This document shows, in pieces, positions 37,138 to 64,000 of a stretch of DNA of 64,000 bases (positions are counted from its first letter, which is position 1; every line of letters starts with the position of its first letter). Source of the stretch: Laetmonice hystrix (taxonomy: Eukaryota); assembly GCA_965235115.1 (NCBI GenBank), contig OZ249436.1, positions 19,842,001-19,906,000 on the forward strand, given 5' to 3'. The position numbers were made by a program, and so were the translations under genes. The notes beneath the pieces are model-generated. The model made no database searches. It worked only from the letters and a program-made list of their open reading frames with translations, and was not told the DNA's origin.

Positions 37138-37869
37138 GACTGGCGAGCATGCTCAGTAGGTCTAATGTTAATGCAGTAAAGCTGTTGGCTAAGCCAAGCC
37201 CAAGAGCAAGGCTCAGGCCAGGGATTCTAATTTCTAGTTCTAAGGCCACTTAAAATTAATAAATTGTTTTACATGACTCCAACTTCTGAAATGTTGGTGA
37301 GTAGGGTATTTTATATTTTATATTTTTCCTTGACAAGAAGGACAGCAGAGATCACCAATACTGGAAAAATACTTTTAATTTCTCAATATCTCAACATTTT
37401 GTACAGCCCTCCTATACCTTGAGGGTCACTTTAACTGTAACACCCTGACAGAACTGTGGGAGACGGTTTTGGGGATGAAAAAAACGGACTTTTTGAAAAA
37501 TATAAAATATAAAAAAAATCGAGGCGGCGCCAAAAAATTGAGGCGGCCGGCCATGTAAAACAATTTATTAATTTTAAGTGGCCTAAACTCTTTTAGTAAT
37601 TGATCAAACCTGTAGTCAGTTCTTTGCTCCTGACTAGGGATTGACTTTTTCTTAACAATAACATAACCAATTAAGTCAATCTGAAATTGGTTAAGTACTC
37701 CTGAAAAAAAGGCCGTTTGATTTTGTTGATGGATTAAACTTTTACCCCGCCAGACAATATCTTTGAATCTCAAGCTTTTTACTCTTGTTAAAAGGCAACC
37801 ATAGATAACCATGTATCATTTATTTTAAATTGCAGAAAAGTTTTCCTGTGTGATGATCAATTTGCCAAA

Positions 37870-38820
37870 ATGAAGCCTGACCAAGAACGAGTCAAGAATC
37901 TGTTACTTGATACAGTGACATTGCTGTGTAAGAACAGTCTCCAGTTTGAAAACCAGCTCCGCGTAGAAGGTCTCCTTGGAGTTGCTGTGGATGATCAAGA
38001 TGTGTTTTTCTTACACATAAGTGAAAATTTTAAAAGCGCTGCTTATCTTGAAAAACTGGAAGCAGAGGCAGCTGCAGAAGCCGCAGCTGCAGAAGCTGCA
38101 AAAGTGTCGCAGAAAAATGAAAGTGCCAGTGACAAGGCGCGGTGTAGCCCCAGACTTTCACCTACAAGTGAGGAGGGACAAGAACAGCATGAATTGCACA
38201 ATAAACCAACAAACAGTGCTAAAGTCAAACATGAATCAAACTCTAAGCACCAGGAAGATGCTCTGACTATTAAGTCTGAAACGGTAGAATCTTTGTCAGA
38301 AGAAGAAGATGTGATGATCACAGGGTCTTCTAGTTTAAACTCGCCAGAAAATGTTGCACAGTCAGCCATGATGGTGGCTGGCAAGCGCCGAGCAGAGCGC
38401 CGACCTAGAACTAGAAGTCCATTGAAAAGCTGTAATAGTTCTATTGATCATTCTCAAACCTCAGAGATTGGGGAATCAGACTATGCCAACAATTCATATT
38501 CTCATCATGAAGATGGAGCCATGTCAAGAGGCCAAACCTTTGAACACTATAAATATGATGCAGGCGATTCATTTAAACAGGAATCAGACTGGGGGGAACC
38601 CCCTGCCAAAAGACATGCTAATTCTGGTACTACACATCCCTGGCCAAATGTGGCTGGTTTTGGGGACTTAGCAGCACAGGCTGTGCAAGCATCATTCCAG
38701 GAGTCTGAGGACAGTCAAGTATCTGGAGGTGGTGACATCTCTCAACCGGGCTGTTCCACATGGTCTAGTCAGCTGCAGGCTTCAAGCCTAGGTGCTACCA
38801 ATTCATCTGGGCAAGAAACG
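37870..38820 (+). CDS. Constant (shared) coding exon of a multi-isoform DNA-binding protein gene: ~55-aa N-terminal domain plus low-complexity linker, 317 codons
   Basis: Acceptor TTTTAAATTGCAG at 37835, ATG at 37870 (AAAATG), open for 951 nt to the donor ACG|GTGGGT (phase 0). The N-terminus MKPDQERVKNLLLDTVTLLCKNSLQFENQLRVEGLLGVAVDDQDVFFLHISE looks folded. The linker has SUMO-like KxE motifs (VKHE, IKSE, FKQE) and an NLS-like PPAKR. Confidence 0.8.
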
Positions 38821-39107
38821 GTGGGTGGATCTTGTATACTTTTAATTTTAGTGGACGTTCAGACAAAGCCTAAAGTTATATAACTGTATCTTGCTTTATA
38901 TCAGTTTGGTATAAAATTCAATATTGGAAAGCAAAAATATTTGTCTTCACTCTTTGGAAAATGAAATTCGAGAAGGAACCTCTTTATTCCCACGTCCATC
39001 AAAAACAGGGCTTGACATGACTATCCTGCTTAAATATCAGTTTGGTATGAAAATCTATTGGAAGCAAAAATATTTGTTCTTCACTCTTTGACATTAAAAG
39101 CAGTTAA

Positions 39108-41086
39108 AGTGGCACTAAAGATTCGTTAAATACTTACCATTGAACCCCAGGGACACCATGTTAAATTTTGAGGTTCGAGTGATAAGCGAAACATGAGTTA
39201 TGTCGGGTGTTCGAGTTACCCTAGCGCCCGTCCGCTATTTTCTCAAGCCAGCGCAGGCTGGAAACTAGCGGTAATCTATTTATAAAATAGATCACAGAGT
39301 ATGGCAGCGGAGTCGGAAGCCAATGGAGCCATATTTTGCCATTCTGTTTTTAACATACGGGAGAATTGCAATATAATCATACCATTGGCCGTTTTGTATC
39401 TTGTGTCTTAGAAACGAACTTACCTGATCTTTATTTTATCTCATATTTCTCCCCAATAGTAAATCTACACTGGAACATTATATAGGCTTCGTTAGGACTA
39501 ATATTAATTCATATACGCTCAAATAATAGGTTGAAATGTCCCACCCGTAACACCGTTTATCTCTAGGTTTCTATGTTTTTTTCGCAATTTCTAATAAATT
39601 CTTTATCCTTCTCTAAAAAGAGTCTGTATCAGTTTTATCAAGAATTTCTTTGGGTTCAATATGCTTTTCTTGTCATTTTCAATATGTGCCAGATTTTTTT
39701 ACATGGCCTCATTTTGGCTTTCGTACTGTTTCCTCAGTTTTTGATGTCCCACCCGAAACAGTGCGAATAATTCAAACTTGAGTGTCTAGTACTTTTCATT
39801 ATTATTACTAAATAAAGGTTTTTCAAGTTTGCTTTGCAGCACAAGCAAAATTTCAATCATAGTATCAAAATTAAATGAGAAAATATCTCGCAATCGATTA
39901 AAATGACGTTTGTTCCATCTTGTTTGTCCCACCCGTAACACTATAATCATGAAAAAATGGCTACAATAAGATTGAAATTGAAATTTTATTTTGATAAATC
40001 GATTAGGCAGTGCGAAGGTGGCCAGCGTTGTTTTTCTCTTCTTACACGCAAAGGTTCAGATATTGGATATTTTTCATTAATCCGTCCCGCCCGTAACGTG
40101 TCCCACCCGTAACGCTTACTTTCACCCTAACCCTACTAATTTGGCATTTATCAACTTAAATTAGGATTTTGTGGCAAACTCGATCCCTATGCAATTTGGT
40201 AATAATTGTTATGCAAAAATTCCAATGGTATATAACAAATACGGTTAATTGGTCAGAAAAAGCTTGGTTTATTAGCTTGTGTTTCTTTTTTTTTGGTTTA
40301 AATTTAAATAAAATTATTTTTTTTAAATATATTTAGGTTTTCATGGTTTCATGTGGGTGATTACAGATTTACCTTTGCAAACAACATTGAAAAAGGTTAC
40401 TTTCATGCAAAAAGAATCCAAAACATTAAGATATGTGATAATTTGTCCCACCCGTAACACATAGAGTACATCTTCATTTCGCTAATTTACAAGATTTTGT
40501 GAGTAGTCTTAAGAGTGAAAAATAAATGATTCAAAACATATTTTAATTATATCATCATTTTAGATGTTATAAAGGTTGTAATGAATGAATTAAAATTTGT
40601 ACAAAAAACGGAACTTGCTAAATTTGGAAATTTTGTCCCACCCGTAACACAAATTTTACAATTACAGAAAAAGTAATTCACCATTTTATTCCTATTTGCA
40701 TAGGAAAATGCATATGTACTAAACAAGCAAGTTAGGACCTTTAAAATAAATAGAGCCTTATTATTTATCACAAAGAAATTTATATTAAAACCGTTACGGG
40801 TGGGACAGTAAATACACGTGTTCTTCTTTTCAGAAGTATGGTAATAATAAAGATGTTTAATAATAAGGTCAACCAAAATAAAAATAAGGTAGAGCAACAT
40901 GTAAATTTTCATATTAAATAAGTAATTTTGGTGGCAGTGAAAAAAAAAATTGCCTAAAATGGCGCGCTTGGCGGTATGATTATATTGCAATTCTCCCATA
41001 CTTTAGCTTATCGCTGGACCCTGAAAATTTAACATGGTGTTCTGGAGGTCAAAGGTAAGTATCTGAGGAATTTTTGGTGTGTAACT
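39108..41086. mobile_element. Kolobok-like non-autonomous element (TTAA TSD) interrupted by a nested element
   Basis: TTAA|AGTGGCAC... to ...GTAACT|TTAA. Both arms match the uninterrupted copy at 43745-44103. Confidence 0.75.
39359..40997. mobile_element. Nested non-autonomous TIR element, 4-bp TSD (Sola2-like)
   Basis: Perfect 25-bp TIRs GGGAGAATTGCAATATAATCATACC / GGTATGATTATATTGCAATTCTCCC flanked by ATAC on both sides. The internal motif TGTCCCACCCGTAAC repeats many times. The superfamily is inferred from the GRG terminus and 4-bp TSD. Confidence 0.8.
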
Positions 41087-42705
41087 TTAATGACAGTTAC
41101 TGCCCTGGCCCTGGTAAACAGTTGCAGGCATGCAGCAGTAGGCCTAAAAGTTATTATTTCGCCACTACTTTTGGGTGTCAGACTCGTGGAGAGTTTGAAC
41201 CCAAATGACATTAGAACCACAAATTAAAATATTTGATGGGACCAGTATTGACCTGGTAATCATGTGAGCAGAACTGCTGAATCACAAGTGGAAGAACAGT
41301 CTTTGGGGTCAGTGCTAATGTCAAACCCTGAAAAAATAATAATCAGAGAAGTAAAGCAGGGCTTGTATAATACAGGCTTTGTCTGGCATCTATTAGTGTT
41401 TGACCTTTATGGCTGTTGGAAAGAAAAGTGAAATATTTTTACTGGACTGGACAAAGTACAAGTACTAAGTATTCACACTGGGGAAGGGGATTTTAGAGAA
41501 CTATGTGTCAAAATTTAATTTGCGAATCTGTTGGTAGCTTGGTAAGCATGTCACACGGGACTGGATCAATGTCCTATTCATTCTGAACATTCATAAAATC
41601 CAAAAGTTCACATAATTTTCTAAATATCAGTGTCTAAATTATTATTAACAGGTGTTTTTTGGATTTAGTGTAGCTAAGATATTGTTATGCATAATGTTAA
41701 GAAAAAGTGAAAACTCAAATAAAAAAAGTTATTAAAATGGACCCGGTGTCATCTTTCTTTTTCTATTTATTTATTTTAAAATGATTAGTCTAATTGGGAT
41801 CATTTACATGCTTGATACTAACCTAGAAATAATCTCTCCGCCTAAGCTGCTGTAAAATTGAATAAATGTCAACAACAGTTCAACCACAACATTTTGTGAT
41901 CTGGAGTGAAATCTACGTGTGAACTAAACTGAAGGTTGTTTCGTCATTGACAGCTGTATCAGTGGATTTAGAATATTGTTTTAAAAGTTGGGGTTTCAAA
42001 ATTTTGTGACTTGCTGTTTACAATTCAATAACTAAGTGTAGTTTTCAGAGACAAGGAGACCTGTTTAATTTTTAATGTACCTTGTACTTGAATATTTGTC
42101 CAGATCCTATTTATTAGTTTCTTGCTGTTGGAAAATATGTCAAGCTTAGGTTCAAATTATAATATATACTTTGGACCTGTTGATGGGTGACCTTAAGAAA
42201 TTGTTTGTTCTCAAGAATCTGGCCGTATGACTCGAAATCTTGTGGTTTGAAAATCTTTTTAAACGGCTTCCATTTTTTTCAGACATGATTTCACACACTT
42301 GCGGACACCTAAAAATTTAAAACAAATTTCTCCCTGCCTCATCAGACTTTTTCCAAGAAAATTCTTCGGAACAAACAAATTTTTAAGGCCAGCCTCATTC
42401 AGAGACTGTGTCACTGTCAGGGCTTAGTTGATAAATCACAGTTGTAGCATAGGATCCTTTCAAATTTTCATCCTAGTTTTGTGTGTGCCCAGCAGTAATT
42501 TCTGTCTGGAGGGGCAGGAAGGAAAGTTGTTGTTACCTATTTTTATGAACTGAATTTACATTCTTTTAAAAAGATAAAGTTAGAATTCGGTTTTCAATTC
42601 TCAGTTTCAGCAACTGTGTAGTTTTATCACATGCACCATATTGCATATTTTTAAACTAGTGTTGCTTTTATTGCTAATATTTGCAACTCAGATCGCCCAG
42701 TTTAA

Positions 42706-43437
42706 GGTGGCTGCCTGGTTACGAAAATGGTCTTTCTGCGTCGATTTCTGCACGGCCTGTCAACGGTTTGTGGCAGAATCTCATCACGACACCATAATGA
42801 ATATTAAAATAAAAATTACGCAATATGAATGAGAAACTATGATGATATGTTAAATAATAGGGAAAGGAATCACAATTTATTTGTCGAACTGAAGTTAGTT
42901 GGTGTTTTCAAGACATCCATGCCTGGGCTTCTGCTAGCCGTTTGCCACGTTCGCATTTATATAACAGAGGAAAACAACAGAGGAAAATGGCGAAAGAAAA
43001 TATTGCAAAAAATACCATATTTTCGCCACACTGGCAAATATAAGAAATAAGATTTCCCAGAAAGGCAAGGAAATTATTGCCATCAGAGCACTAAACCTAC
43101 ACATAAAACGTTCCATGTTGTATGAAAAAGTGTTTATTTCACGTATCAGAACTTTGCCTTGTCTTTATTAATATTTCTGTCGGAGATGTGGATAAAGAAA
43201 TTCTGATGTGGCTACAGGATTTGGTTACCCGTTTAGCCACGGTGGCTAAAGAAGATTATTGGCAAGAGGAAGCCCAGCACACATTTTGAGATAACCCTAT
43301 TATTGCTCATCCCGCCAGTCATTTTGTGAGGGAAGGAACAAAACATCTTTTAAAAAGAAGGGAGAGACTAACCTAAACCTATTGCTGTGCAGTTTGGTGG
43401 ATTTCTCATGACTTTCATTTTAAACCAGGCAGCCACC
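42706..43437. mobile_element. Kolobok-like non-autonomous element
   Basis: TTAA|GGTGGCTGCCTGGTT ... AACCAGGCAGCCACC|TTAA. Confidence 0.75.
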
Positions 43438-43744
43438 TTAACTTAAGCCAAACTACATTTAATTTAGACCTTGATCAATGCTCATGAATTGAAACTGTTT
43501 TGAAGTGCCTTGGATGATGTTGGCAAGCATTCAAAAATAAGACGTTATTCATGCACCTGATTCAAAATGTGTGGTGGATCGAACAAAGTGGGGATTGTTC
43601 TTATATCATGAAGTCAAGTTTATTTTCTCACGTCAGTCTTTGTTGTATTTCTGAGGCTTGTGGATCATGATATATTTATTTTTATGGCTGTGTAAGTGTA
43701 TTGCACAGCAAAAAACATGTTGCATGTCAGTCAAGTGATATTAA

Positions 43745-44103
43745 AGTGACACCAAGAATTACTCAGATACTTACCTTTGAACCCTAGTGACACACCATGG
43801 TAAAATTTCAGGTTCAAGCAATAAGCGAAACTTGTTATGTTTGGGCTCCGAGTTAACTGTTTGGCCCATCTGCTATTTCGCTAAAGCCAGCACTGGCGGA
43901 GAGCTAGTGGTAATAGGTCATAGAGTAGGCCTACTGGTATGTCCAAAGATGGCAACCGAATTGGAGTGGAAGCGAGGAGAACAGCAGAGACATATTTTTC
44001 CATTCCATTTTTAAAATACCTTCGCTTATTGCTCGAACCTGAAATTTTAACAAGATGTCACTGGGGTTCAAATGTAAGTTTCGGAGAAATTCTTGGTGTC
44101 ACT
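43745..44103. mobile_element. Kolobok-like MITE (same family as 39108-41086)
   Basis: TTAA|AGTGACACCAAGAATT ... AATTCTTGGTGTCACT|TTAA. Confidence 0.8.
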
Positions 44104-44813: not shown

Positions 44814-45218
44814 GGAGCAGAGGTGGCCGGTGCAGACCAGGGCATGGACACTTCCAGATCCTTTGTCCTACCCTGGACTGTGGGCAGTACTAGGGTAGGA
44901 CTACAAACCCAGCTGAACCACGCCTTATTTTCTGACAGCATTCCAGAACTTTGCTGCATGCAGTGTAAGTGCCAGTTTCCATCGGCAGCAGCTTTGTCGC
45001 AGCATGCAAAGTCTTGCCATGAAACAATCAAGCGACATCAGTGTTCCATCTGTGGACTGTCTTTCTGCATGCCCTGGGCACTACGACGGCATCAGCTAAC
45101 TCACACGGGGGAAAAGCCTTACAAATGCCCTGTTTGTGGTAGTGCCTTCTCTCAAAATGGGACTATGTATCGACACATGCGGAAACTCCATAACATGGAA
45201 CCACCCAGCAACATTTGA
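44814..45218 (+). CDS. Alternative terminal exon A: 3 C2H2 zinc fingers
   Basis: Acceptor TTGGCCATCTTCCAG| in phase 0. [31 protein letters not shown], then stop. Confidence 0.85.
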   Translation, partial: GAEVAGADQGMDTSRSFVLPWTVGSTRVGLQTQLNHALFSDSIPELCCMQCKCQFPSAAALSQHAKSCHETIKRHQCSICGLSFCMPWALRRHQLTHTGEKPYKCPVCGSAFSQNGTMYRHMRKLHNMEPPSNI

Positions 45219-46312: not shown

Positions 46313-46765
46313 GAGGCGATGCCCTGGGTGCAGCCAGATGACCGTTGGCCGGATGCTGGCAATAATCCTACATACAGTCTCAGAGGCAGTCGCACCTCAG
46401 TCGAAATGATGCACAAAACAGGGGAGCTCTACTCTTGTAATGTGTGTAAGGCAGCCTTTGCAAAGCCAGGAACTTTAGAAAAACACATGGCTAAGCACAC
46501 CGGTGAAAAACGTTGGATCTGTTCAGTGTGCTATACTGCCTTTGCACGGAAGGACTACCTAACAAGTCACATGATGGTTCACACTGGAGAGAAACCGTAC
46601 AAGTGTCACTTGTGTCCAGCAGCATATCGACAAAAAGGCAAACTGAATAAACACATGAGTTCTGTTCACCCAGATGAAAAGATAGTGTCTCCTCTAAAGA
46701 CGATTGCTGGATCAGTTAGTGGTGAGATCATGAGCAGAAAGCTTGAGCACTCACTGGGGATTTGA
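46313..46765 (+). CDS. Alternative terminal exon B: 3 C2H2 zinc fingers
   Basis: Acceptor TTGGTGCTGTTCCAG| in phase 0. CNVC, CSVC and CHLC fingers with TGEK linkers, then stop. Confidence 0.87.
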   Translation, partial: EAMPWVQPDDRWPDAGNNPTYSLRGSRTSVEMMHKTGELYSCNVCKAAFAKPGTLEKHMAKHTGEKRWICSVCYTAFARKDYLTSHMMVHTGEKPYKCHLCPAAYRQKGKLNKHMSSVHPDEKIVSPLKTIAGSVSGEIMSRKLEHSLGI

Positions 46766-47866: not shown

Positions 47867-48199
47867 AACATCTGGCCAGGAAGCGAGCATGAAGGAGCTG
47901 TTGGCTTGGACTCATCAAGACACAGGAGTTCAGTATCATTGCTACCCTCCAAGTTGAGCGTTGGATATATTCAGGCCCAGCCCAGTAGGCGTGATGGAAG
48001 TTCTCCTGCTCACGATGATCGCAGACATCGTTGTTCCACCTGTGGCCTAGCATTTACTATACCGTCAAAACTACTCCGCCACATGCGAACACACACTGGA
48101 GAAAAACCCTACAGGTGTATGACCTGTGGGGCAAGCTTCTCGCAGGACGGCTCACTGAACCGACACATAAAACAAAAACATGGAGTGATTATTCCATAG
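47867..48199 (+). CDS. Alternative terminal exon C: 2 C2H2 zinc fingers
   Basis: Acceptor TTGCACATGTTGCAG| in phase 0. [33 protein letters not shown]. Confidence 0.87.
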
Positions 48200-48596: not shown

Positions 48597-48917
48597 AGAT
48601 TGTGGCCACGGAGTTGGTATGGGAAGACTTCACAGCATTCGCCACCAACAGCTCGGGATTCCGACCCCAGCAATAGTTGGGGGACACCTCAGTCAAATAG
48701 AAGACTGTGTGGTACAGTGACAAAAGATCACGATCAACGACCCTGCTGTACGCTCTGTGGCCTCCTGTTTCCCTGTCGGTCGAAACTAGTGCGTCATATG
48801 CGAATCCACACAGGTGAAAAGCCGTACACCTGCAGCATATGTGGTGCAAGTTTCTCACAGAATGCCACGCTAAGAAGACATATGAAAGGAACACACAAAC
48901 TGATTGATCAGGAGTAA
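48597..48917 (+). CDS. Alternative terminal exon D: 2 C2H2 zinc fingers
   Basis: Acceptor CTTGGCGTGTTGCAG| in phase 0. [33 protein letters not shown]. Confidence 0.87.
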
Positions 48918-50351: not shown

Positions 50352-50678
50352 AGAACCCTGGAACTGCCAAATCTGGAAGTGTACAGAAGCAACAGTGGCT
50401 CTCCGCTTCATGTCTACTCTGGAGGTCTTGGAGAGTCGGAAAGAAACTGCAGTTCAGTGGTTCAAGACGAAGTTGATAACTCACTGGAATCAATTCGAGG
50501 CCAGCAAGCCTTCCGCTGCTCCTACTGTGGACGCACATTTAGATTGACAGGAGATTTGAGGAGACATTTGATGACACATACAGGAGAGAAACCCCATCGT
50601 TGCAGTGTCTGTGGGCATCACTTCGCCAGATTAGACAGCTGTAGACGGCACATGAAATTACACAACAAAGTGTCTTAA
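50352..50678 (+). CDS. Alternative terminal exon E: 2 C2H2 zinc fingers
   Basis: Acceptor TGTACGGTTTTGCAG| in phase 0. CSYC..DLRRHLMTH-TGEKPH-CSVC..RLDSCRRH. Confidence 0.87.
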   Translation, partial: RTLELPNLEVYRSNSGSPLHVYSGGLGESERNCSSVVQDEVDNSLESIRGQQAFRCSYCGRTFRLTGDLRRHLMTHTGEKPHRCSVCGHHFARLDSCRRHMKLHNKVS

Positions 50679-50822: not shown

Positions 50823-51122
50823 AGACGAAGAGATTACCAATTCATAGGACACGTGGGCAGTGGAGGTTCAGTTCATCTGGAAAGAAGGCCAAAGCATATC
50901 GAGGAACTTAACAGTGTAATGCCACAGCAGGCTGAAGCGGGTGGACGTTACATGAATCTACACAGCTGTTTTTACTGTGGGAGACAGTTCAGACTGAGTA
51001 GCGATTTGAAACGTCACATGCGATCACATACAGGGGTAAAACCTCACACCTGCGATGAGTGTGGCATAAGTTTTTCAAGACTTGACAATTTTAAAAGGCA
51101 TCTCAAACGGCACTCGAAATGA
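50823..51122 (+). CDS. Alternative terminal exon F: 2 C2H2 zinc fingers
   Basis: Acceptor TTGGACATTTTGCAG| in phase 0. CFYC..DLKRHMRSH-TGVKPH-CDEC..RLDNFKRH. Confidence 0.87.
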   Translation, partial: RRRDYQFIGHVGSGGSVHLERRPKHIEELNSVMPQQAEAGGRYMNLHSCFYCGRQFRLSSDLKRHMRSHTGVKPHTCDECGISFSRLDNFKRHLKRHSK

Positions 51123-52004: not shown

Positions 52005-52310
52005 ACTGGATGGAATTGCAAGAACCAGCGACAGTTCGTCAGTGGATACTCTGCTCAGTATGCTGTCATTGTGCAACAGGGAGTGTATCCTTCGATGCCA
52101 AAATCTGATGGATTTGGCGAAGCCAGAATACTTGGGAAGTGGACTAATCAATCCTGTGACTACTGTGGACGTCAGTGCAGGGGCGGTTGGGACATGCGCC
52201 GTCACATGTTGACACACACAGGGATTAAACCACACATCTGTAAACACTGTGGCAGTGCATTTTCTCGACTCGACAACTATAAGAGACACATGAAGCAGCA
52301 TGAAAACTGA
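52005..52310 (+). CDS. Alternative terminal exon G: 2 C2H2 zinc fingers
   Basis: Acceptor TTGCACATTTTGCAG| in phase 0. CDYC..DMRRHMLTH-TGIKPH-CKHC..RLDNYKRH. Confidence 0.87.
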   Translation, partial: TGWNCKNQRQFVSGYSAQYAVIVQQGVYPSMPKSDGFGEARILGKWTNQSCDYCGRQCRGGWDMRRHMLTHTGIKPHICKHCGSAFSRLDNYKRHMKQHEN

Positions 52311-52567: not shown

Positions 52568-52945
52568 GCTAGTGACGTGCAGTTTGGCCAGAATTATTCT
52601 CCGCCCTTCCTTCATGATGTTGGAATACGGAAACATTCAAGAGCACGTCACGGAGACCAGTATGACCAGACTTACTTCTGTCATCTTTGTGGCAAAGGGT
52701 TTGGAACACGTGGCTCGCTTCGGCAACATGAGAAGTTTCACCAAGAGAAGCAACATAGATGCGACATTTGTGGCTCCTCATTTACCATGGCGGCCGACCT
52801 CCGCCGACATGTCCGTATCCACACAGGGGAGAAACCCTACGTATGTCAGACGTGTGGCGCCGCCTTCTCCCGAGCAGATAGGTACAGGACACACATCACC
52901 TGCATCCATCATGACACTGAGGAGACAGTCGCAGTTCAAACATAG
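52568..52945 (+). CDS. Alternative terminal exon H: 3 C2H2 zinc fingers
   Basis: Acceptor TTCAACTCCTTCCAG| in phase 0. CHLC, CDIC and CQTC fingers with a TGEKPY linker. Confidence 0.87.
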   Translation, partial: ASDVQFGQNYSPPFLHDVGIRKHSRARHGDQYDQTYFCHLCGKGFGTRGSLRQHEKFHQEKQHRCDICGSSFTMAADLRRHVRIHTGEKPYVCQTCGAAFSRADRYRTHITCIHHDTEETVAVQT

Positions 52946-53723: not shown

Positions 53724-54167
53724 ACGGTGGAAAAGGAGGACATCCCAGCAGATGGCAGGCACCGGGAGGCTGTTTGGATAAGTACTGGTGCCATAGAAGA
53801 CAAGTCTCTGGACCCTATTGGATCTTCACCTCAATTATCCCATCAGTATGGCAATGTTTCGATGATGCCTTATCGTTCTCCTGACAGCCCTCCAAATTAC
53901 CATGATTCCCAGAGTAAGCCACACCAGTCACGCAGTCATACGTGTGATGTGTGTTCCAAGGGCTTTAAGAGAATCAGCCACCTGCAGCGTCACAAACTAA
54001 CCCACACTGGAGAAAAACCGCACAAGTGCTCGGTGTGTGAGGTCCGCTTCGCTCGCACCGATAAACTGAAAAATCACATGACTACGCACCATCCCTTAGT
54101 TATGTCTTCACCCTCACGAGTCTACCGTCGTGACTACCTTTCGGAAATGAAGGATTTTAATGCTTAA
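53724..54167 (+). CDS. Alternative terminal exon I: 2 C2H2 zinc fingers
   Basis: Acceptor TTGACCATTTTCCAG| in phase 0. CDVC..RISHLQRH-TGEKPH-CSVC..RTDKLKNH. Confidence 0.87.
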   Translation, partial: TVEKEDIPADGRHREAVWISTGAIEDKSLDPIGSSPQLSHQYGNVSMMPYRSPDSPPNYHDSQSKPHQSRSHTCDVCSKGFKRISHLQRHKLTHTGEKPHKCSVCEVRFARTDKLKNHMTTHHPLVMSSPSRVYRRDYLSEMKDFNA

Positions 54168-55429: not shown

Positions 55430-55816
55430 AGGGTGATCAGTCGCCTACCATTGCACTCCTCCCGGTGGAGCACAAGCACCCCATACGTGATAGCGCCCGG
55501 CATGGCCCAGTCCGCTCAACAGTCTCCGGCAGCAAATACAACAGAGACGCCACTAAAATGTTTTGTCTGCCATGCCAAATTTGAGCTTCGCAGTGACTTA
55601 CGGACCCACATGAGGAGCCATTCGACAGCCCCAACCTATAGGTGCCCGTTCTGTCAATTGACATTCCTACGAGTAAACGATATGCAACAGCATGTCGCCT
55701 TGCATTCCGTGGAAAGGCCTTTCAAATGTGGGGGATGTAACGCTACTTACACAAGCACTGAACATTTGCAGAGGCACCAGGCAATGAACTGTCGGGTATT
55801 TCGGCAGAACCCATGA
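55430..55816 (+). CDS. Alternative terminal exon J: 2 C2H2 fingers plus 1 C2HC finger
   Basis: Acceptor CTGCTGTGTTTGCAG| in phase 0. CFVC..HMRSH, CPFC..HVALH-SVERPF-CGGC..HQAMNC. Confidence 0.83.
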   Translation, partial: RVISRLPLHSSRWSTSTPYVIAPGMAQSAQQSPAANTTETPLKCFVCHAKFELRSDLRTHMRSHSTAPTYRCPFCQLTFLRVNDMQQHVALHSVERPFKCGGCNATYTSTEHLQRHQAMNCRVFRQNP

Positions 55817-56235: not shown

Positions 56236-57287
56236 ATATTTTTACTAGTGACCAAAGAAAGATTCTGTAAACTAGGACATTTTCAGGGGCGTGTGGAACA
56301 GAAAGTTCGCAAATTCACCACCACAATGTGAAAATGGAAATGTCAAATTTTAGAATTATATGTATTTTAACATTTGGGGGATTATAATGAGAAGTCCGAT
56401 TGAGAAATTCACGAAAATTCCACGGTTTAGCTTTTAGCACCAGTTGTATATATTATGCCGTGGTTCACTGTTGCTATGAAACATAATTGCATGATGATAC
56501 ACCTAATTTATAAGACACAATCCTATGGAGAAATGGAAGAAATGCAGCCATTTGATTGACATATCCATTGTATATAAAGTTATTTTACACTGAACGTAGA
56601 TCTCAGCACAATTATTCTTGATGTGGTAACTTTGTGTACTGACATTACGGACAAAACTATTTCCTGATAGACATGCCTCTGTGCTATTAGTGTTTTACAT
56701 GATTACACATACGTATACCTGGTGACCATAAATAAAGATTATTCCTACATTTGTGACTGGTAGTACTCGTTATCTCAGCAGGTTTATGCCATCATCAACT
56801 GATACATTATGTTGCCCGCTTTACCCCGTTCATGAGTGTTCACACTTTGTTCACACACAAAGGTCGGTTCACACTTTGTTTACACAAAAAGGTCGATGAA
56901 CAATGACATGTAGGGAAAGTTACCGGGATTGGACCCCTTAAGGGAAAATACCGATGTAGGTTACAAAAAAAAGAGTTACCATCTAATAAGTCAGCACTTT
57001 GGTATTGTTGGGGCATGCAATATGTTTTGGTTCAACGCACTTTGCTACAAGTTTAATTGTTCAAGAGCAAACGGAATTTGTTTTTTAATGTCGATCTGGT
57101 CCAATCGTAGAACCAGCATCCGCGAATGGACCATATGTCACCATATATACATAGTTGGACAAATGAAGATATTATGTGAGGGATAGTCCACGCCCACGAA
57201 TGGGTCCATGCAGGTTATACGCCGAGGGCGATGCACGAGGCGTATAACCTGCATGGAGACATGAGGGGTGGCCATGGACTATCTCAC

Positions 57288-57497
57288 TTAAGCCCGGGAT
57301 ACACGAGGAGATTTTTCGCATGCGACAGTGTCGCATGCGACGAATCTTATCATGTAGACACCCTTGCGCCACCTTGCAACATGGTGCATGCGATTTTTTT
57401 TCTGTCGCATGGGATTGTTGCGTGCAGCAATCCTTGCGACAATTCGCATGCGTCAGAATCGCATGCACCTGGAATCGTACCGTCTAGCCGACCTTGC
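57288..57497. repeat. Degenerate MITE-like element rich in TCGCATGCGA palindromes
   Basis: Repeated GCATGCG/CGCATG motifs in both orientations. The termini are only weakly inverted. Confidence 0.4.
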
Positions 57498-58363
57498 ATC
57501 AACATCGCAAGTGACGACCTTGATGACCTAGGCCTACAGGTCTGGACACGTGGACGTCAACAAAAGTATTGCTGCTTTTTTCCTTCGCCTTGTAGTAGTC
57601 CGTGCCATGGTGTAACTTGTGAAAAGGGGTAACTTCGCTCGTGTAACTGCCACATGACATCCCACTCTACAAATAAATGCATGGCGAAGGCAAGTATATA
57701 TGGCGTCACTGAAAATAATGAATTATTCATTATCACATGAGGTGATCAATATAAATGACTAGAAATATTTGTAAATTTGCCATAGGGTGGCGCTTCCCGT
57801 CTCTTGTACTTTGTTCATTCGGAACACCTCAGCCCAAGTTTTGGTCGCTTCGCTAGTTGTGGTTTCGGACCTCGCAAGCTGTAGATATATGACAGAGATT
57901 CCACGGGTTTGGGCACATCACAACTCGCATAGTGCGCAAAGTAGTTCATAGATCGTCGGCATTTGGCCTGACGCAGGATTATTCATGGGGAAAGATGGAT
58001 AATTTCCAAAGATTTGTAGTCTCGATCGTTCTTAGCAGCCGCGACACATTCAGTTTTGCAGTATTTATGAAATCATACGACTTTACTAGCTTGCATCAAC
58101 ATAAGAAAGATGTCATATGCCCGAAGGAATCCCGAGGGAATCCCGAGGGAATCCCGAGTGAGACAGCGCATCCGTGGGACGAACGTTGACCTCTGTCTGA
58201 CGATAAACAATGCCAATAGGAATGTCACCATCTAAAAAGTATCTATAGAGACCTGAATAGATTTTCTTTGACGTTTAATCCACTTGTCAGAGGTATCAAG
58301 CAGAGATCTGCTTTTAAACAAGCCAGACACTGCTTGTCTTTCACCTTTGTCAGTGTGTCGGCC

Positions 58364-58473
58364 GTCGCCATTTTGACCACGTTGTGTCACGTGATAAAAG
58401 AAGATCCAACATGGTGACGACCTTGCGAGGGCCGAGAGGATCTGGCCCGGACAGTCCCGAGGTTGGCCGAATG
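58364..58473 (+). promoter_or_regulatory. Candidate internal CpG-rich promoter with a short ATG-containing exon
   Basis: CGCCATTTT (YY1-like, 58366), TCACGTGA E-box (58387), CAACATGG start context (ATG 58411), then 21 open codons ending at ATG|GTACTT (phase 0). Confidence 0.35.
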
Positions 58474-58527
58474 GTACTTTGTTGTGAAAGGTGTCAGCGG
58501 TACTAGGCTAATAAAGCCATGCTCACG

Positions 58528-58851
58528 GGGCATCAATAAACAGCGAACTGAGCGAACTGAGATCGTCTAGTTATGCCTCGGGGGATTCCCCATAGAGACT
58601 GGCTATTGACACCAACACGGAAACAGCCGACCTAAATTAGTTTGACTAATTCCTACACGAAACAGTGTGTTTGGGTTAGGGTAAATGTTAGGCCTAGGGT
58701 TAGTGTTAGTTTAATCCCAAAATTGTTGTTAAAATAGGCAATAACTTTCTGCCGTGACGTCATACCTGAAGTCACTGGCTTGTTGCATGACTAATCGATC
58801 TCAGTTCGCTCAGTTTCTTCTGTTCGCTCAGTTTGCTGTTTATTGATGCCC
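58528..58851. mobile_element. Second copy of the MULE-like MITE, inverted relative to 55901-56235
   Basis: Same TIRs, 9-bp TSD ATGCTCACG on both sides. The internal sequence is the reverse complement of the first copy. Confidence 0.88.
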
Positions 58852-60805
58852 ATGCTCACGTGCCACGGTTGTAGGGTAAAGCCAGGAATCCATTGTGTAC
58901 CAGGCCCGTAGGCTGGTCTGAAAATGGGTGGGTTACTTATCAGGGGCGGACCCAGGATTTTCAAAACGGGGGGGGGGGGGGGGGGGGGCTATGGATAAAG
59001 GGCATATTAACAGGGCCGTAGTTAGTAATGTCTGAGTGTGGGGGCAGTCAGGGGCAAATCCAGAAATTTGGTAAAGGGGATGTCCCCCATGGGTGCCAGC
59101 GCCGAAGGCGCGAAGCCATGAAGGCAGGGGCCTAGCTAGGGGCCCTTCCCCAGAAAAAAAATTAAATTACAGTGCCAAATACGCGATATAGACCAGCCTT
59201 TAGGGCTATAATAGGCCTAGACAATTGGACATTTAGATTTTAAATATCTTTCGTAAAATAAAAAAGGGCACTTGAGGGGGAGAGAAAAGGGCACATGGGG
59301 CGAGAGGGGGTGCACTGCTTAGGCCTATAGTGAAATGAGTTCCATAAATTTGCATGGGGTGGATTCAGAGCTGTTTCTTGACCATGCACTGATATTGAAA
59401 CTTGTTTCCAATAGGCCTACCAGTGGTTCCAACGTTTAAGAATGTGAAATGCACCAGCAAAGCCACTGTAGGGAGCACCATAGGCACGAAGCGTTTGTAC
59501 TAGGTGGTACGGGGGCATGCTCCCCCGGCAGGATTTTTTTTAAAACTAGGAGTGAAATGATGCATTCTGGGGGCATTTTGGCCATGTTTCAGAAATCTGA
59601 GAGCAAAATTTTACTGAGGCACAGTATACAAGGAATCTCTTTAGATTTTTAGATTGGGAAGTAACCCCCCCCCCCCCCCCCCCCAGTGGTTCTCGCCTCT
59701 TCTGAGATACCAGTGGCAGTGCAGTTCGGCCCCTGGTCAGGTCATATTGAATATTTGCGTGCTAGGGGGGTCTGAATCTGGGGTCCGGTACATGTTCCCC
59801 CAGAAAAAAATGAAAAATTGGAGGCCTAACAACCATACATCTGTGGTTTTTTTCAATTGGTGGGGCATAGGCCTATTTGTGCCCCCTCCTCCAACTGAAA
59901 AATCGGTCCCGCGCCCCAGCATGGGCAGACCTTTTTACCTTGACTATATAGGCGGACCTTGGCTGCCTCTGCGGGTAGGTTACGAGTAACCCAAGTAACC
60001 CCCCCAGCCTACGGGCCTGTGTACGTAGTGTGGGCGGAGTGCATAATGTGTTTTCATTGTTTTGATTACGCAATACGCACTACGGACACTGTTGATTCTT
60101 CTTGGATCCGTAACAAACCACAAGAGCTTGTCTGTTGAGGTTCCTATAGAGTATGTTTTATTCAGGGGTCTCTCGCCATACACACTAAGCACTTCATCTT
60201 TCAGTTGGATCTGTGCGATAAATCTGTCCTCATGTACCGTTATCAGACCGAACTGACAGTGTCAGTGATGTCAGAAGCAATTTTTTGAGGCCCCCAAGAG
60301 CATTTTAGGCTGTGTGCGTGGCAGCGGTAAAATAGAACACATTAGGCCCACTGAGATATGAATCGGCACGTGGGACCGGGGGGGGGGGGGGGCAAAACAT
60401 AGACTGGCATAGTCTGGGGGCATGGACCCTGTGGGGGGGGGGCGGGGGTGGCAAAACATAGTCCAGGGGGCATGGACCCTGCTGCCCCCCTTCTGCCATC
60501 ACTGACTGGTGCAATATAGTGTTTATCCCCATGTTGATAGTGGGAAAGCCTAAATAGGAACTAGGCCCCTATGCCTAGTTATTTTGCTTTGTGCTGTAAT
60601 CTCAACGAGTACAGACTCTAAATTTCAGTTGTGTAAAAGGAATGCCCGACTAATCTAGGCACAAATAACCAATGTTTAAAATAACACCATGACAGAAGGG
60701 CGACCATGGGAATGTTCACTCGTATTCAAGTGGAATGATTAAAGAAATGAATAGTTGGCAATTGATTTTTAACGGGCCGTCTTTCTGCTTGTGAAGGTCT
60801 ACCAG

Positions 60806-61198
60806 GAGGGCGGTTGGAGACCTGAAGGAGACGTAGGCCTAATCAACAAATTCAGAACAGTAGATGCTGAACGTAGTAACCAGTGGCGGCATCGCTGTCG
60901 TAGAAGGAGGACCAATCAACAAGGACGAGAGATTCGACAGATTGGTTTGGCCGAAAGACAAGAAATAATTCAGCGCATTGTGGAGGCTGGCGGTGATACG
61001 GTCACGGGAAAGGCGCCCCTAGGCACCCTGACACGGGTCGCCGAATTATATCACATCGGCAAGTCTACCGTGTTCAATATGTGGAAGTCTTATTGGAAGT
61101 TTCAGTCTTTAGAACATGACCCCCGAGTCTTACAGCGACTGAGCGATGGGCAAAACTGTACAAGGTCTGGTGAACCAGCCGGGACCGGAAATGTGTAA
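60806..61198 (+). CDS. Alternative terminal exon K: helix-turn-helix domain (paired/Tc1-type transposase DNA-binding-like)
   Basis: Acceptor GTGAAGGTCTACCAG| in phase 0. RRRTNQQGREIRQIGLAERQEIIQRIVEAGGD...TLTRVAELYHIGKSTVFNMWKSYW has an HTH pattern. Stop at 61198; no DDE domain follows. Confidence 0.62.
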   Translation, partial: EGGWRPEGDVGLINKFRTVDAERSNQWRHRCRRRRTNQQGREIRQIGLAERQEIIQRIVEAGGDTVTGKAPLGTLTRVAELYHIGKSTVFNMWKSYWKFQSLEHDPRVLQRLSDGQNCTRSGEPAGTGNV

Positions 61199-61571
61199 TG
61201 AGCTCACTGCCCTAGCGCGGCTTTAGCCTTGGCCTAGGCGGCTAAAATAACGGTCACTGCTTCTACCTCATCCATCTACTCTTGGTGCATGCTCGCTTCA
61301 AACTAATAGTTTGCACACGTCTACTTCATGTTCCATGGGGAAGTAATTATATTCAGAAAACTTTGTATGACTGTCAGGTCTACGGTGCATTTATTGAAAG
61401 TAGGCCTCTTCATATCCTGCTTATGGTAGACTTCTATTGTCGGTAGCCTACTGCAGAGCGTCATGTTCCTCATTTTAGTATTGCTGTATACTCTAGTCTA
61501 TATAGAGCCATGGTGCAGACAAGGATCAAAGACTTGTTTAATGACAAAAAGCTGTATTGCCAATGTTGCAG

Positions 61572-61889
61572 GCAAGAGGCAATTGGATGGAACCCACACA
61601 TCCCCAGATTAAAGTGGACTCCAGAGGGATGCAGAAATCACAAGTCTTGTTCAGCACGCATCAGGACCAAAGTATAAATTGTTCTGAGAGTCTGCAACAC
61701 CGAGTCATGAAAACGTTTGCCTGCCAAACGTGCGGCGCCACATTCGCAAACAAGAGTAACCTTCGGCGACACCTTCGGACTCACACGGGCGAGAAACCCT
61801 ATGTCTGTAGTGCCTGTGGTACAGCTTTCTCCCAGTCCAATAATCTCAAGGCTCATATACGGCGCGGGCACACCCAACTACCCAGTTAA
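61572..61889 (+). CDS. Alternative terminal exon L: 2 C2H2 zinc fingers
   Basis: Acceptor TTGCCAATGTTGCAG| in phase 0. CQTC..NKSNLRRH-TGEKPY-CSAC..SQSNNLKAH, with AATAAA at 61930. Confidence 0.87.
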   Translation, partial: ARGNWMEPTHPQIKVDSRGMQKSQVLFSTHQDQSINCSESLQHRVMKTFACQTCGATFANKSNLRRHLRTHTGEKPYVCSACGTAFSQSNNLKAHIRRGHTQLPS

Positions 61890-64000
61890 AACGGGTTTTC
61901 ACAACAAACCTTTGACAGGCCTCTGATGGAATAAATTTGCCTCAACACTTGCAACATAATGAGGCAGTGCCATGACAACAAAGAGCAGTTGGAGAAGCAG
62001 AATAATGCAGTTCATATCTACTAAGCAATTAGTGGTTGGATTTTGATGATAATCTCCATTGTCAAGATGTATCTGCAAAGCTTCAGCAAACAGTCTAAAA
62101 ATGTATCAAAACGTGTGTTTTTTAGCCCCCAACCCAAAGGAGTGGGGGCTTCTGATTCACCCTCCGTCTTGACGTCCGTTTCTCAGAAGTGTATTGGGTT
62201 TTTTTATATAGTTCAAAATGGTCACTCAACAGCTGTCTTGGATGTAAACTCATTTCGAGCAGTAACTTAGACAAAAGATTCCGATTTCTTTCAGATTTGG
62301 TGCAGAGAAGAAGCACATGAGGGGCAATTTATAACCTACTCAGCAGAAAAACCCACAAAGTTACATGACATGACATGACAGACATTTGACATGAAATTTC
62401 AAGGGGAGGACCCCCTCCCCCCGCATGCACGCCTCGAGCCCTCGGCGCTGGCAGTACGGTCACATGATTTCCAGTTCCCCCCCCCCATTTTTTTGAGCTT
62501 CCGACATCCCTGAAATGGTGGACATAAAAGATACTAGCTACTGAAATTCGGACTCCTGACCCCGACTGTGTTTCATCATTGACTCAATAATCACCAATAA
62601 TGCTCAGTATTCTGAGCAAACTTTGCAAACATATTGGCCAATGCATATACTGAAAGATTGATTTCATTATGTGTCCCAAAGGGCAATTAAAATGTTCACT
62701 TTCTTACTTTGTGCGTTTATATTTTTGTTCAGTATATATGGTAATGTATGCTTAGTTCAGAGCAAATAATTATGGCAACATGGCAGCCATATTTCTTTTT
62801 TGACCCTCGAAATAACACTGTTTTGGCTCATATCTTGAAAATAATGTAAGATAACACAATAGTTACTATTATTGACAGACATGGGTGTGTGGTAACTCTT
62901 TGGGTTAAGAGGTGCAGAGGGGTTGATTTGCCCGAAATTTCTCCGTCCGATTTGTTTTCTTTTTGCTCTGCCTAAATTTTCACCACTGTTTTGCCTGAAT
63001 TTAGGGGGGAGGGGCCCCCCGCCTCGTACGCCTATGTTGACAGATAGGAAGTCATATATTAAGTCCGTTTGAGGCCATTTTCCAAGACCTTTACAGGTCA
63101 ATCCAAGGTCATGAATATTTTCAATGGCCTGTAACAGTTCATGATAATGACATTAAGGGACAATCTAAGAACCAGGCAGGTCAAACATATTTTTTATATC
63201 ATTCAAAATGGCCCCTTGGTGGCCATCTTGGATATAAACACATTTGGAGTAACAAAATTGTCTGAATTTCTTTCAAACTTGGTGACAAAGGAAGGCATAT
63301 GAAAGGCAGCAAGCGTGCATTTTTTTGCGTTAGTGTTCAAGACAAACGAAGGTGAGCAAGTCATATTATAAAGTTTCATTTGTCAGTATTTCCCTTTACA
63401 TTGAGTGACCTTGTGAGGTCAATCAAGGTCAGAGACATTTTCGACAATTCATATCTAGAAAACACTTCAAGGTAACCACTTACTACAAATGGTGGATGAA
63501 AACATATATGAAGTTTCTTTGTGACTTATGTATCAAAGATGTTCTCACATTGTCTGTATCTCAAAATTGATTTCTGGACCCACAGATAATTAGGCCTAGT
63601 GCCTACCCAGTTGGAGACTGTGACTACGACGTTTGCTTGTTTTATCATCTTTCTCGTGATATTTATTAGGCTAAATAGTTAACTGTCCTCACCGCACTTT
63701 GAAAAGGTAGCTGATTATTTGAGTAAACTTAAAAATACATTGTACGTAACTTCGAAAATAAAACACTTACCTGTCACCTATAGTAACCTATTGACATGTG
63801 AAGACACACTGTTCCTACAGTACTGCAGTATGATGATATTTGTTAACTAGGATTTGGGCCGAAGCTATTAACAGATAACAGCAGGAGTTTGAATTTGCCT
63901 CGGGGCGCTGCAACTGACGTCCCATAATAGTCCCAAGTCCTGGGGAATCCCATGCTAACTTCTGGTATAGCTCCACCATATTTGATCATCATCATAGGCT

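Follow-up and report, generated by a model that had tools for sequence, protein, structure and literature searches.

A constant exon without a BTB domain and its array of alternative DNA-binding terminal exons: a probable convergent lola-like locus

The window analysed here, a stretch of DNA of 64 kb, contains one constant exon, which we call the head exon, and downstream of it on the same strand an array of twelve short cassettes, eleven with zinc fingers and one with a helix–turn–helix (HTH)-like module. The features are as follows; cassette coordinates include the stop codon.

37836..38820, + strand: constant exon (coding part 37870-38820, 317 codons)
38821..38826, + strand: phase-0 splice donor GTGGGT, read as ...GAAACG/GTGGGT at 38820/38821
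44814..45218, + strand: cassette 1, three C2H2 fingers
46313..46765, + strand: cassette 2, three fingers
47867..48199, + strand: cassette 3, two fingers
48597..48917, + strand: cassette 4, two fingers
50352..50678, + strand: cassette 5, two fingers
50823..51122, + strand: cassette 6, two fingers
52005..52310, + strand: cassette 7, two fingers
52568..52945, + strand: cassette 8, three fingers
53724..54167, + strand: cassette 9, two fingers
55430..55816, + strand: cassette 10, two fingers by pattern and a C2HC-like third by eye
60806..61198, + strand: cassette 11, HTH-like module with a sub-threshold DUF7769 match
61572..61889, + strand: cassette 12, two fingers

Reading of the sequence and its frame confirmed the 317-codon exon with a phase-0 GT donor at 38820/38821 that had been proposed in a preliminary description of this DNA. 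The exon is spanned by an open frame from 37792 to 38883, in which its end is in phase 0, and its start codon is the ATG at 37870 (K-M from 37867). Since an AG occupies 37834-37835, position 37836 is itself probably a splice acceptor. The protein begins with a head domain of approximately 55 residues, represented in the profile by the motif M-K-x-D-Q-E-R-V-x-x-L-L-x-D-T-V-T-L-L-C-K-N...E-G-L-L-G-V...V-F-F-x-H-I, and continues into a disordered region, in which several short motifs are conserved (an acidic stretch with VMITG, the basic KRRAxRRP, EPPxKR, PWPN and SQPGCSTW). The absence of a BTB domain, also claimed previously, was upheld by a Pfam scan of the constant exon, which gave no BTB family, nothing above E 0.05 and no family for the head domain. 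The head domain likewise found no match in a PDB sequence search or in Foldseek at E≤0.001. Over its roughly 55 residues it is predicted to fold into one helix and a two-stranded hairpin, with a best VIA-wide Z of 4.0; pseudopilin and MADS-like rows at Z 3.1-3.8 were taken to represent the common helix-hairpin arrangement. The ESM Atlas returned, as a lead only, a ‘hypothetical protein’ cluster at 0.76, in which Annelida were commonest.

In all twelve listed cassettes a CAG precedes the start, which is in phase 0, and the frame remains open to the cassette's own stop on the strand of the head exon, as originally described; the linker of each is unique. A C2H2 pattern scan of both strands of the window returned 27 matches. 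Downstream of the constant exon, on the + strand, are 25 of these (44952 to 61871), and the remaining two, at 2736 and 28520, were judged by eye to be cysteine-rich chance strings. Two zinc-finger cassettes, 44814 and 53724, were included in the Pfam scan, where they scored 45.8 and 33.9 bits for zf-C2H2 (cut-off 25.2) and 49.9 and 43.7 bits for zf-H2C2_2 (cut-off 40); for the nine unscanned finger cassettes we relied on the pattern C-x2,4-C-x12-H-x3,5-H. The two to three fingers expected in eleven cassettes were thus borne out by the pattern scan, and for two of them by Pfam. There are 24 distinct base-contact signatures among the window's 25 fingers and the 11 finger cassettes all differ, which suggests that the cassettes would read different DNA.

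The ‘HTH’ label attached to cassette 60806 held only in part. The cassette itself is sound, having its own acceptor and stop, and an HTH identity is plausible, but its sole Pfam match, DUF7769, reaches 17.9 bits against a cut-off of 27, and the scores of two paralogous cassettes, 18.3 and 14.8 bits, also fall below that cut-off. We ruled out a transposon fragment, since the HTH cassette has just four matches in the genome, all four in head-exon loci, downstream of the head exon and on its strand.

The suspicion that the array extends past the window proved correct, with three more intact cassettes and two decayed ones, giving at least 15 intact terminal exons at the head-exon locus (12 in the window and three beyond). 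Cassette 61572 has a frameshifted duplicate beyond the window, and dN/dS between cassettes 65853 and 68519 is 0.51. To see which parts of a cassette are retained after duplication, we averaged the identity per segment over 21 pairs of duplicated cassettes. Mean identity was 0.83 from −40 to −1, 0.79 in the linker and 0.75 in the domain, compared with 0.52 from −100 to −41, 0.47-0.48 from −300 to −101 and 0.45-0.46 after the stop; what is conserved is therefore the coding sequence together with its 3′ splice site. In 20 of the 21 pairs nothing is conserved upstream of −40, and therefore no conserved promoter is visible. The exception is the pair 65853/68519, in which approximately 190 bases upstream of the acceptor are 98% identical while the coding part is 77% identical. 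This block contains CCAAT- and TATA-like strings that would suit a promoter of its own. It was ruled out as a repeat, having only two copies in the genome.

The phase of the acceptors was assessed across six loci by taking the best-scoring acceptor within the interval open in the finger frame of 113 cassettes. This acceptor was in phase 0 in 94 of the 113 (P about 1e-27 with the open-interval restriction); when the restriction was lifted, phase 0 was observed in 75 of 114 (P about 1.5e-12). In 20 of the 113 cassettes there is no in-frame ATG ahead of the first finger; the other 93 have one and could, on this ground alone, be translated by themselves. The acceptor logo from 108 sites has T at −6 (86%), T at −5 (85%) and C at −3 (96%), corresponding to the consensus T-N-T-T-[G/C]-C-A-G. 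We also scanned the first intron (38821-44400) against the 400 bases upstream of 16 acceptor positions for docking/selector RNA pairing in the style of Dscam and PGRP-LC. Reverse-complement 8- to 10-mers did not exceed the same-sense controls in frequency, nor was any of them common to four or more cassettes.

Four sequencing runs from one sample and study were available. Three of these (X1-X3) cover introns evenly and behave as DNA, whereas X4 (59 million letters) has exon-shaped cover, and it is from this cover rather than from the record that we take X4 to be RNA. X4 contig 22 covers 37834-38820 and terminates exactly at the donor. Contig 23 begins at 46312 (cassette 2) and contig 28 at 52567 (cassette 8), each carrying 28 additional letters without a match in the local DNA, the pattern expected of a k-mer contig that is spliced to another exon. 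Contig 27 spans 50823, the exact acceptor of cassette 6, to 51418. All three are continuous from the acceptor across the fingers to a point beyond the stop. No junction was read letter by letter, and among the joints listed none came from X4. Contigs 25 (48497-49470), 26 (49655-50485) and 29 (55363-56042) pass the acceptors at 48597, 50352 and 55430, respectively, beginning 67 to about 700 bases upstream of the acceptors that they cross; these cassettes are therefore represented in X4 by unspliced or independently started RNA. Conclusions were drawn only for parts with X4 cover, which excludes, for example, cassettes 1 and 9. As weak hints of polyadenylation, contig 27 ends 14 bases past ATTAAA and contig 25 ends 13 bases past TATAAA.

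The locus is not alone in the genome. The head domain has 36 matches, so that the single-locus picture drawn initially was right in design but understated the scale, the family comprising at least 36 loci. We read six of the 35 paralogues at 30 kb, plus the neighbouring locus B and one paralogue of 5.7 kb. A same-strand cassette array lies downstream of the head exon at all six loci fetched at 30 kb, with about 4 to about 40 cassettes per 30 kb, and locus B and paralogue C1:31.68M have the same head-plus-array layout. Every cassette seen is on the strand of its head exon (approximately 114 finger, 56 second-end-domain and four HTH cassettes). The donor is similarly constant: G/GTNNGT in phase 0 ends seven of eight head exons, shortly past a PGCS[ST]W motif.

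The second end domain, of 200 residues, is represented by at least 17 exons at locus B. A genome search with a single protein as query found 56 matches, all 56 on the same strand as a head exon and within 51 kb downstream of it, although only 0.17% of strand-specific genome space lies in such a position. A Pfam scan of this domain gave no match and Foldseek none at E≤0.001, and the PDB sequence search returned only SeqA at E 0.11. It may have an HUH/Rep-like nuclease fold. The best VIA Z was 7.0 (2x3g), with generic ferredoxin-like folds interspersed among the Helitron, Rep and TnpA(REP) chains at Z 5.1-6.2, and His-x-His was not found in the invariant columns. Syntaxin rows from the Atlas (0.84-0.89) were rejected because the model is alpha/beta.

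A head-domain profile search gave 1562 clusters at E≤0.001, 973 of them at E≤1e-10, and the named relatives are exclusively annelid ‘hypothetical proteins’. In predicted proteins of other organisms the head is joined to different ends. Head-to-finger proteins include P0155 and P0099 (fingers by Pfam) and P0142, P0140 and P0257 (by eye), the predicted proteins P0251 and P0279 join the head to HTH_psq, and P0152 joins it to the second end domain. Proteins predicted in other species continue without a break into ‘V...’ at the position of the donor. P0257 diverges from its read-through relative P0190 just past ‘...SES’, where P0190 goes on ‘VSG...’.

Taken together, five independent lines support the arrangement proposed in the preliminary description, one head exon with mutually exclusive terminal DNA-binding exons and without BTB: the phase of the acceptors, the conservation from −40 to the stop, the X4 breaks at the donor and at three acceptors, the same layout at paralogous loci, and the joining of the head to varied ends in predicted proteins of other organisms. 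The locus is most probably a convergent, non-BTB lola-like system. We consider it likely that it is one transcription factor gene, whose constant head exon is joined in cis to a single last exon out of a set of 15 or more, and we infer that the joins are made at 38820. In the mechanism that we propose, the head exon would encode a helix-plus-β-hairpin domain and a disordered region with nuclear-localization-like and other motifs, and its single phase-0 donor would be joined to one of the last exons, at least 15 in number, each supplying its own 3′ splice site, linker, DNA-binding module (two or three C2H2 fingers or, once, an HTH-like module), stop and 3′ end. The outcome would be a set of proteins that have the head in common and read DNA with differing ends. 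We regard ordinary cis splicing within a long primary transcript as the most probable route; selection of a last exon would be coupled to the polyadenylation site of that exon. The array probably grows and decays by tandem duplication, and the same design would operate throughout the family of at least 36 head-exon loci.

An alternative that we think unlikely is trans-splicing as at Drosophila mod(mdg4), whereby each cassette would have its own promoter and an outron, and its acceptor would be joined to a separate head transcript. This is the route of the fly precedents, as far as the sections available of PMC11426971, PMC6237743 and PMC12692577 describe them. X4 contigs that begin 67-100 bases upstream of the acceptors at 55430 and 48597 and cross both would fit such a route, but contigs cannot reveal RNA starts. 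The 98% identical block directly before 65853 and 68519 would fit it as well, but its counterpart is unconserved in the other 20 duplicate pairs. Moreover every cassette seen is on the head-exon strand, so that nothing requires trans joining, and cis joining appears the better reading.

We give very little credence to the proposal that the cassettes are small zinc-finger genes, independent of one another and arranged in tandem, each with its own promoter and first exon, beside an unrelated head-protein gene. The in-frame ATGs in 93 of 113 cassettes, the X4 contigs that are unbroken at an acceptor and the reporting of the head exon alone by gene callers on related genomes are all in keeping with this proposal. 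However, 20 cassettes have no ATG at all, other contigs start exactly at 50823, 46312/3 and 52567/8, and conservation begins at −40 rather than at an upstream exon or promoter. The predominance of phase-0 acceptors, the tie of 56/56 second-end-domain exons and 4/4 HTH exons to head exons, and the head-plus-finger proteins of other organisms also argue against it. Chained use, in which a cassette linker would serve as an internal exon with its own donor and distal cassettes would be reached via proximal linkers, is highly improbable, given that contigs 23, 27 and 28 are unbroken and that the 28 unmatched letters, equally long in both contigs of G-starting cassettes, fit one upstream partner.

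The BTB genes of the fruitless, broad, tramtrack and pipsqueak type have a common protein-interaction head and alternative finger or psq ends. HTH_psq ends also occur in relatives of the present family (P0251 and P0279), whereas the head domain and the animal lineage differ. In lola, a constant 5′ coding part is joined to a 3′ terminal exon taken from a large alternative set, the majority of which encode a pair of C2H2 fingers and their own stop. The layout of the TTK group, a constant 5′ part and then DNA-binding terminal exons with their own stops, was found here in all 12 window cassettes and in the three beyond. In the portion available of PMC11426971, lola is credited with 20 isoforms, 17 of them with fingers, and the TTK-type BTB is described as arthropod-specific. 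The lola head is such a BTB domain, in contrast to the helix-plus-hairpin domain without a Pfam family described here. In addition, lola has several constant exons and reported trans-splicing, whereas the present locus has a single coding head exon and nothing points to a need for trans joining. The arrangement is also repeated across at least 36 loci of this genome, and at some of them 30 kb hold about 40 cassettes.

At mod(mdg4) a constant part is combined with at least 30 alternative end exons carrying a non-C2H2 module (FLYWCH), an arrangement comparable to that of locus B with its 200-residue domain, although the mod(mdg4) head, unlike the present one, is BTB. Independent promoters, some opposite-strand exons and obligatory trans-splicing are reported for mod(mdg4) in the parts consulted of PMC13490949 and PMC6237743. 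Here, by contrast, the exons are all on the head strand, and 20 of the 21 duplicate pairs have no conserved upstream promoter. A full-text literature search found no account of a non-BTB array of this kind or of the head domain; what it returned dealt with BTB genes of flies and arthropods, with protocadherins or with unrelated subjects.

To our knowledge, the diversification of transcription factors through exchange of DNA-binding end exons behind a constant head has been regarded as special to the BTB genes of arthropods. If our reading is true, the use of an unrelated head for the same purpose in a different phylum would clearly exemplify convergence in gene architecture, and would do so at dozens of loci, with arrays that exceed lola and mod(mdg4) in size. 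The family would provide a second, independent system in which to study how one donor picks among tens of terminal acceptors. Gene counts and transcription factor catalogues of such animals would be systematically wrong, since annotation turns the head exons into short orphan proteins and either makes tiny finger genes of the cassettes or misses them. Two nameless domains, the head domain and the 200-residue end domain, are also brought to notice.

A broader reading, which we offer tentatively and which leans slightly towards doubt, is that these loci constitute a spiralian (annelid-type) transcription factor superfamily of at least 36 loci and several hundred factors, an independently evolved functional analogue of the arthropod TTK-BTB group. 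It would have three or more unrelated kinds of end module (finger pairs, HTH, the 200-residue and possibly Rep-like domain, and others), and the head domain, which we infer to oligomerize, would let isoforms pair with each other. The annelid relatives NP493_1657g00059 and NP493_714g00029 (Ridgeia piscesae) and LSAT2_010159 (Lamellibrachia satsuma) are 63-67% identical over the head domain. Annelid relatives are annotated as single uncharacterized proteins, and the names returned carry no domain, isoform array or function. They have the PGCSTW motif in common with the present head exon, with the donor a little further on, at a distance of about 10-25 residues in the loci of this genome and about 40 in two annelid proteins. 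LSAT2_010159 has two fingers at its end.

The preliminary description had proposed that one constant exon (the head exon) is joined to mutually exclusive terminal exons encoding DNA-binding domains. This proposal is supported and extended by acceptor phase, the conservation of duplicated cassettes, genomic linkage and RNA-like contigs, and we regard the architecture of one head with alternative last exons as likely. In the source assembly (627 Mb in 35 contigs; window G+C around 42%), the head exon lies within the following frame:

37792-38883, plus strand: open frame with an ATG at 37870 and a phase-0 donor, GAAACG/GTGGGT, after 38820

Reading this frame and its consensus donor confirmed a 317-codon exon with a phase-0 GT donor at 38820. 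An AG lies directly before 37836 (...aaattgcAG), and contig 22 of X4, a sequencing run taken as RNA-like from its cover, begins two bases upstream, at 37834; therefore the head exon is probably preceded by an untranslated exon, to which its own acceptor would be spliced. A Pfam scan of the exon returned no family, BTB included, which agrees with the earlier statement that a BTB domain is absent. From an alignment of 27 relatives, the N-terminal head domain is predicted to comprise a helix (3-23), two strands (29-39 and 45-55) and a short helix. Modelling gave a mean pLDDT of 86, with two of the five models dropping to 52-55, and no relative was found in the PDB by sequence, by Foldseek or by VIA (best Z 4.0). 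A unit this small and hydrophobic would probably associate with itself or with a partner. The remainder of the exon is disordered and contains short motifs that are conserved both between species and between paralogues. These include PWPN, SQPGCSxW and an acidic run with V/I-rich residues behind it, which we take to resemble a SUMO-interaction motif; basic KRR stretches look like putative nuclear-localisation signals.

Downstream of the head exon, all 12 cassettes, starting at 44814, 46313, 47867, 48597, 50352, 50823, 52005, 52568, 53724, 55430, 60806 and 61572, are preceded by CAG and open from there to their own stop, as first described. Scanning the whole window on both strands for the C2H2 pattern gave 27 matches, 25 of which are on the plus strand within 44952-61871; the remaining two, which are chance strings rich in cysteine, were rejected as fingers. 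The initial classification into 11 zinc-finger cassettes and one HTH cassette holds for the fingers, zf-C2H2 families being confirmed by Pfam in both cassettes scanned, and is less secure for the HTH cassette at 60806, which scored 17.9 bits against DUF7769, below the cut-off of 27. Finger framework positions are nearly invariant and base-contact positions are variable: among the 25 fingers in the window there are 24 distinct signatures at -1, +2, +3 and +6, and the 11 finger cassettes all differ. By the zinc-finger recognition code, different contact signatures would specify different DNA targets. Two recent duplicate cassettes have a dN/dS of 0.51, which shows constraint together with rapid change.

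The expectation that the array runs past the window was borne out by three more intact finger cassettes in the next 44 kb. Features of this region (stretches L009 to L014, with window-continuation numbering where stated) are as follows:

L009:1660-1852, with a copy at genome C1:19910326-19910518: block of about 190 bases immediately before two duplicated acceptors
L009:1853-2266, acceptor near 65853: intact finger cassette
L009:2293-2442 (66293-66442): decayed HTH-cassette copy containing two stops
about L009:2734-3019 (near 66734): decayed, frameshifted copy of cassette 12
L009:4519-4977, acceptor near 68519: intact finger cassette
L009:5537-5875, acceptor near 69537: intact finger cassette (genome span of all three, C1:19907853-19911875)
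L010:471-1568, minus strand: Harbinger/PIF-type transposase frame (DDE_Tnp_4, E 2.5e-14) between two converging arrays
L010-L014, genome C1:19916001-19950000, minus strand: a neighbouring locus (locus B), convergent on the first

Segmental duplications past the window are 83-88% identical, and the array ends near 69.9 kb, where the Harbinger-type transposase frame follows. The head exon of locus B encodes the same head domain and has the donor CAG/GTGGGT. The same strand downstream carries finger frames, one unclassified frame of 182 codons and no fewer than 17 alternative exons, each about 220 codons long, opening after CAG and bearing a conserved domain for which no Pfam family was found.

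Four runs, all from one sample, contain the head exon; run type was read from cover, none being recorded as RNA. On 36400-56399 three of them cover exons and introns alike, and these are DNA. X4 (59 million letters) covers the head exon and most cassettes and leaves the 5-kb first intron almost uncovered, and therefore behaves as RNA. Within this run, contig 22 (37834-38820) ends at the donor, contig 27 begins exactly at 50823 and ends 14 bases past an ATTAAA, and contigs 23 and 28 begin at 46312 and 52567, each with 28 extra letters that match nothing locally. The joints listed included none for X4. A k-mer contig ends where paths diverge, and begins at the first exon base where spliced and unspliced paths converge. 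Divergence at one donor with many acceptors, together with such convergence, would explain the contig breaks, and a contig of the spliced path alone would retain some 29 letters from the exon before it. This reasoning predicts a cassette beginning with G, as is the case for both that have the 28-letter overhang. Against the simple picture, contigs 25, 26 and 29 cross the acceptors at 48597, 50352 and 55430 from upstream, and therefore unspliced or separately started RNA of these cassettes is present in X4.

The same layout was found at paralogous loci. Reading 30 kb downstream of six of the 35 paralogous head exons revealed same-strand cassette arrays at all six, two of which run past 30 kb. 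Five contain about 19, 5, 40, 4 and 37 finger cassettes, and the sixth has six cassettes of an unnamed module (the second end domain). A G/GTNNGT donor in phase 0 is present in seven of eight head exons, shortly past a conserved PGCS[ST]W. Acceptors were chosen with a crude score based on pyrimidine content, Y at -3, R at +1 and the AG-exclusion zone. The best AG up to 330 bases upstream of the first finger is in phase 0 in 75 of 114 cassettes (P about 1.5e-12), a proportion that becomes 94 of 113 (P about 1e-27) for the best AG inside the interval open in the finger frame. No in-frame ATG precedes the fingers in 20 of 113 cassettes, which excludes independent use of at least these cassettes. 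The 108 acceptors chosen give an exceptionally tight logo (T at -6, 86%; T at -5, 85%; C at -3, 96%); the score gave C no preference over T at -3.

We compared 21 pairs of duplicated cassettes with coding identities of 67-92%.

Mean identity of duplicate pairs by region (0.45-0.52 is the level of unrelated DNA under global alignment)
Further upstream: 0.47-0.48
-100 to -41: 0.52
-40 to -1: 0.83
Linker: 0.79
Domain: 0.75
Behind the stop: 0.45-0.46

Because conservation is confined to the stretch from -40 through the coding part, the unit kept by selection is the 3' splice site plus the coding exon.

A single donor would face numerous acceptors that are strong and closely alike; behind each come a stop and, as the contig ends hint, a separate 3' end. 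The simplest mechanism would be that a long primary transcript is spliced in cis and that the choice of exon is coupled to polyadenylation, as for alternative last exons. Joining of head and cassettes by trans-splicing, as in mod(mdg4), could draw on the X4 contigs that pass acceptors unspliced and on the block of about 190 bases, which contains CCAAT- and TATA-like strings and is 98% identical before the acceptors at 65853 and 68519, whereas the exons behind it are 77% and the flanks 70-90% identical. This block, of which the genome has two copies, may reflect gene conversion, or may be a promoter or a splicing control element. However, trans-splicing is not needed, since all cassettes are on the strand of the head, and 20 of the 21 duplicate pairs have no upstream conservation; we therefore consider it unlikely and favour cis joining. 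The first intron showed no docking/selector complementarity to the acceptor regions. The possibility that a cassette is a gene with its own promoter or upstream exon was rejected, since identity outside the stretch from -40 to the stop is at the level of unrelated DNA.

Linkage to head exons extends to the other types of cassette. A 218-residue query with the second end domain gave 56 genome matches in 10 loci, all on the strand of a head exon and at most 50.4 kb downstream; positions of this kind make up only 0.17% of strand-specific genome space. This domain has no Pfam family, and its model has a pLDDT of 91.4. The best structural match is the viral Rep-like protein 2x3g (Z 7.0, rmsd 3.1, 112 aligned), alongside a Helitron transposase (Z 6.2), Rep endonuclease domains (Z 5.1-6.1) and TnpA(REP) (Z 5.9). 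Since these Rep-type matches are of middling score and interspersed with generic ferredoxin-like folds, it is only a lead that the domain may be Rep-like in origin and a domesticated DNA-binding domain. Besides itself and its decayed copy, the HTH cassette matches two cassettes on contig 1 that lie downstream of another head exon, at distances of 2.4 and 4.0 kb, giving four genome matches; the three intact ones are all below the Pfam cut-off. As all four are in head-exon loci, the HTH is a regular cassette type, and its interpretation as a transposon fragment was rejected.

The first 88 residues of the head domain have 36 matches in the genome, each located where an open frame begins (the frames having 200-620 codons for 35 matches and 71 for the weakest). 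Contig 1 (73.8 Mb) holds 31 of them, several as close divergent or convergent pairs, and the family is locally expanded there. When 1.84 billion representative proteins were searched with a profile of the domain, 1562 clusters reached E<=0.001, of which 973 reached E<=1e-10. None of ten clusters looked up had a name, and the three named entries among 120 listed matches of a second search are each a 'hypothetical protein' from the tubeworms Ridgeia piscesae and Lamellibrachia satsuma; judged by these relatives, the source animal is probably an annelid or closely related to one. The majority of database members are gene calls in a single frame, running past the donor into '...V' and the intron, and this read-through in predicted proteins shows conservation of the donor position across species. 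Among 34 longer matches scanned, Pfam found C-terminal fingers in two predicted proteins (P0155 and P0099); by eye, C2H2 fingers are at the C-terminal end of P0142, P0140 and P0257. HTH_psq occurs in P0251 and P0279, and P0152 has the second end domain, in the form of about 220 residues seen at locus B. P0257 and its read-through relative P0190 diverge right after '...SES', P0190 going on 'VSG...', at what is the predicted exon end.

The present system works like lola and mod(mdg4), for which PMC11426971 gives 20 isoforms, 17 with fingers, and at least 30 isoforms with FLYWCH, respectively. Their heads are TTK-type BTB domains, not found outside Arthropoda according to the same source (PMC11426971). 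In contrast, the head exon studied here lacks this defining BTB head and the locus is not a member of that family; it is a convergent counterpart of the lola design without BTB, and family-wide. The BTB-plus-psq theme recurs in relatives of the present family as HTH_psq ends. No literature on a non-BTB array of this kind or on the head domain was found in openly available full text.

DNA-contig depth, about 50 in other parts, rises into the hundreds and up to tens of thousands at 36400-37733, 39068-41068, 42403-44403, 46405-47071 and 55743-56399; these are high-copy repeats that flank the head exon and interrupt the array. Elsewhere in the window, an intronless 479-codon sugar transporter frame (Sugar_tr, E 8.5e-58) occupies 1170-2609 on the minus strand, and a long GA/CT-type microsatellite at about 19970-20500 translates to (RE)n or (SL)n in every frame.
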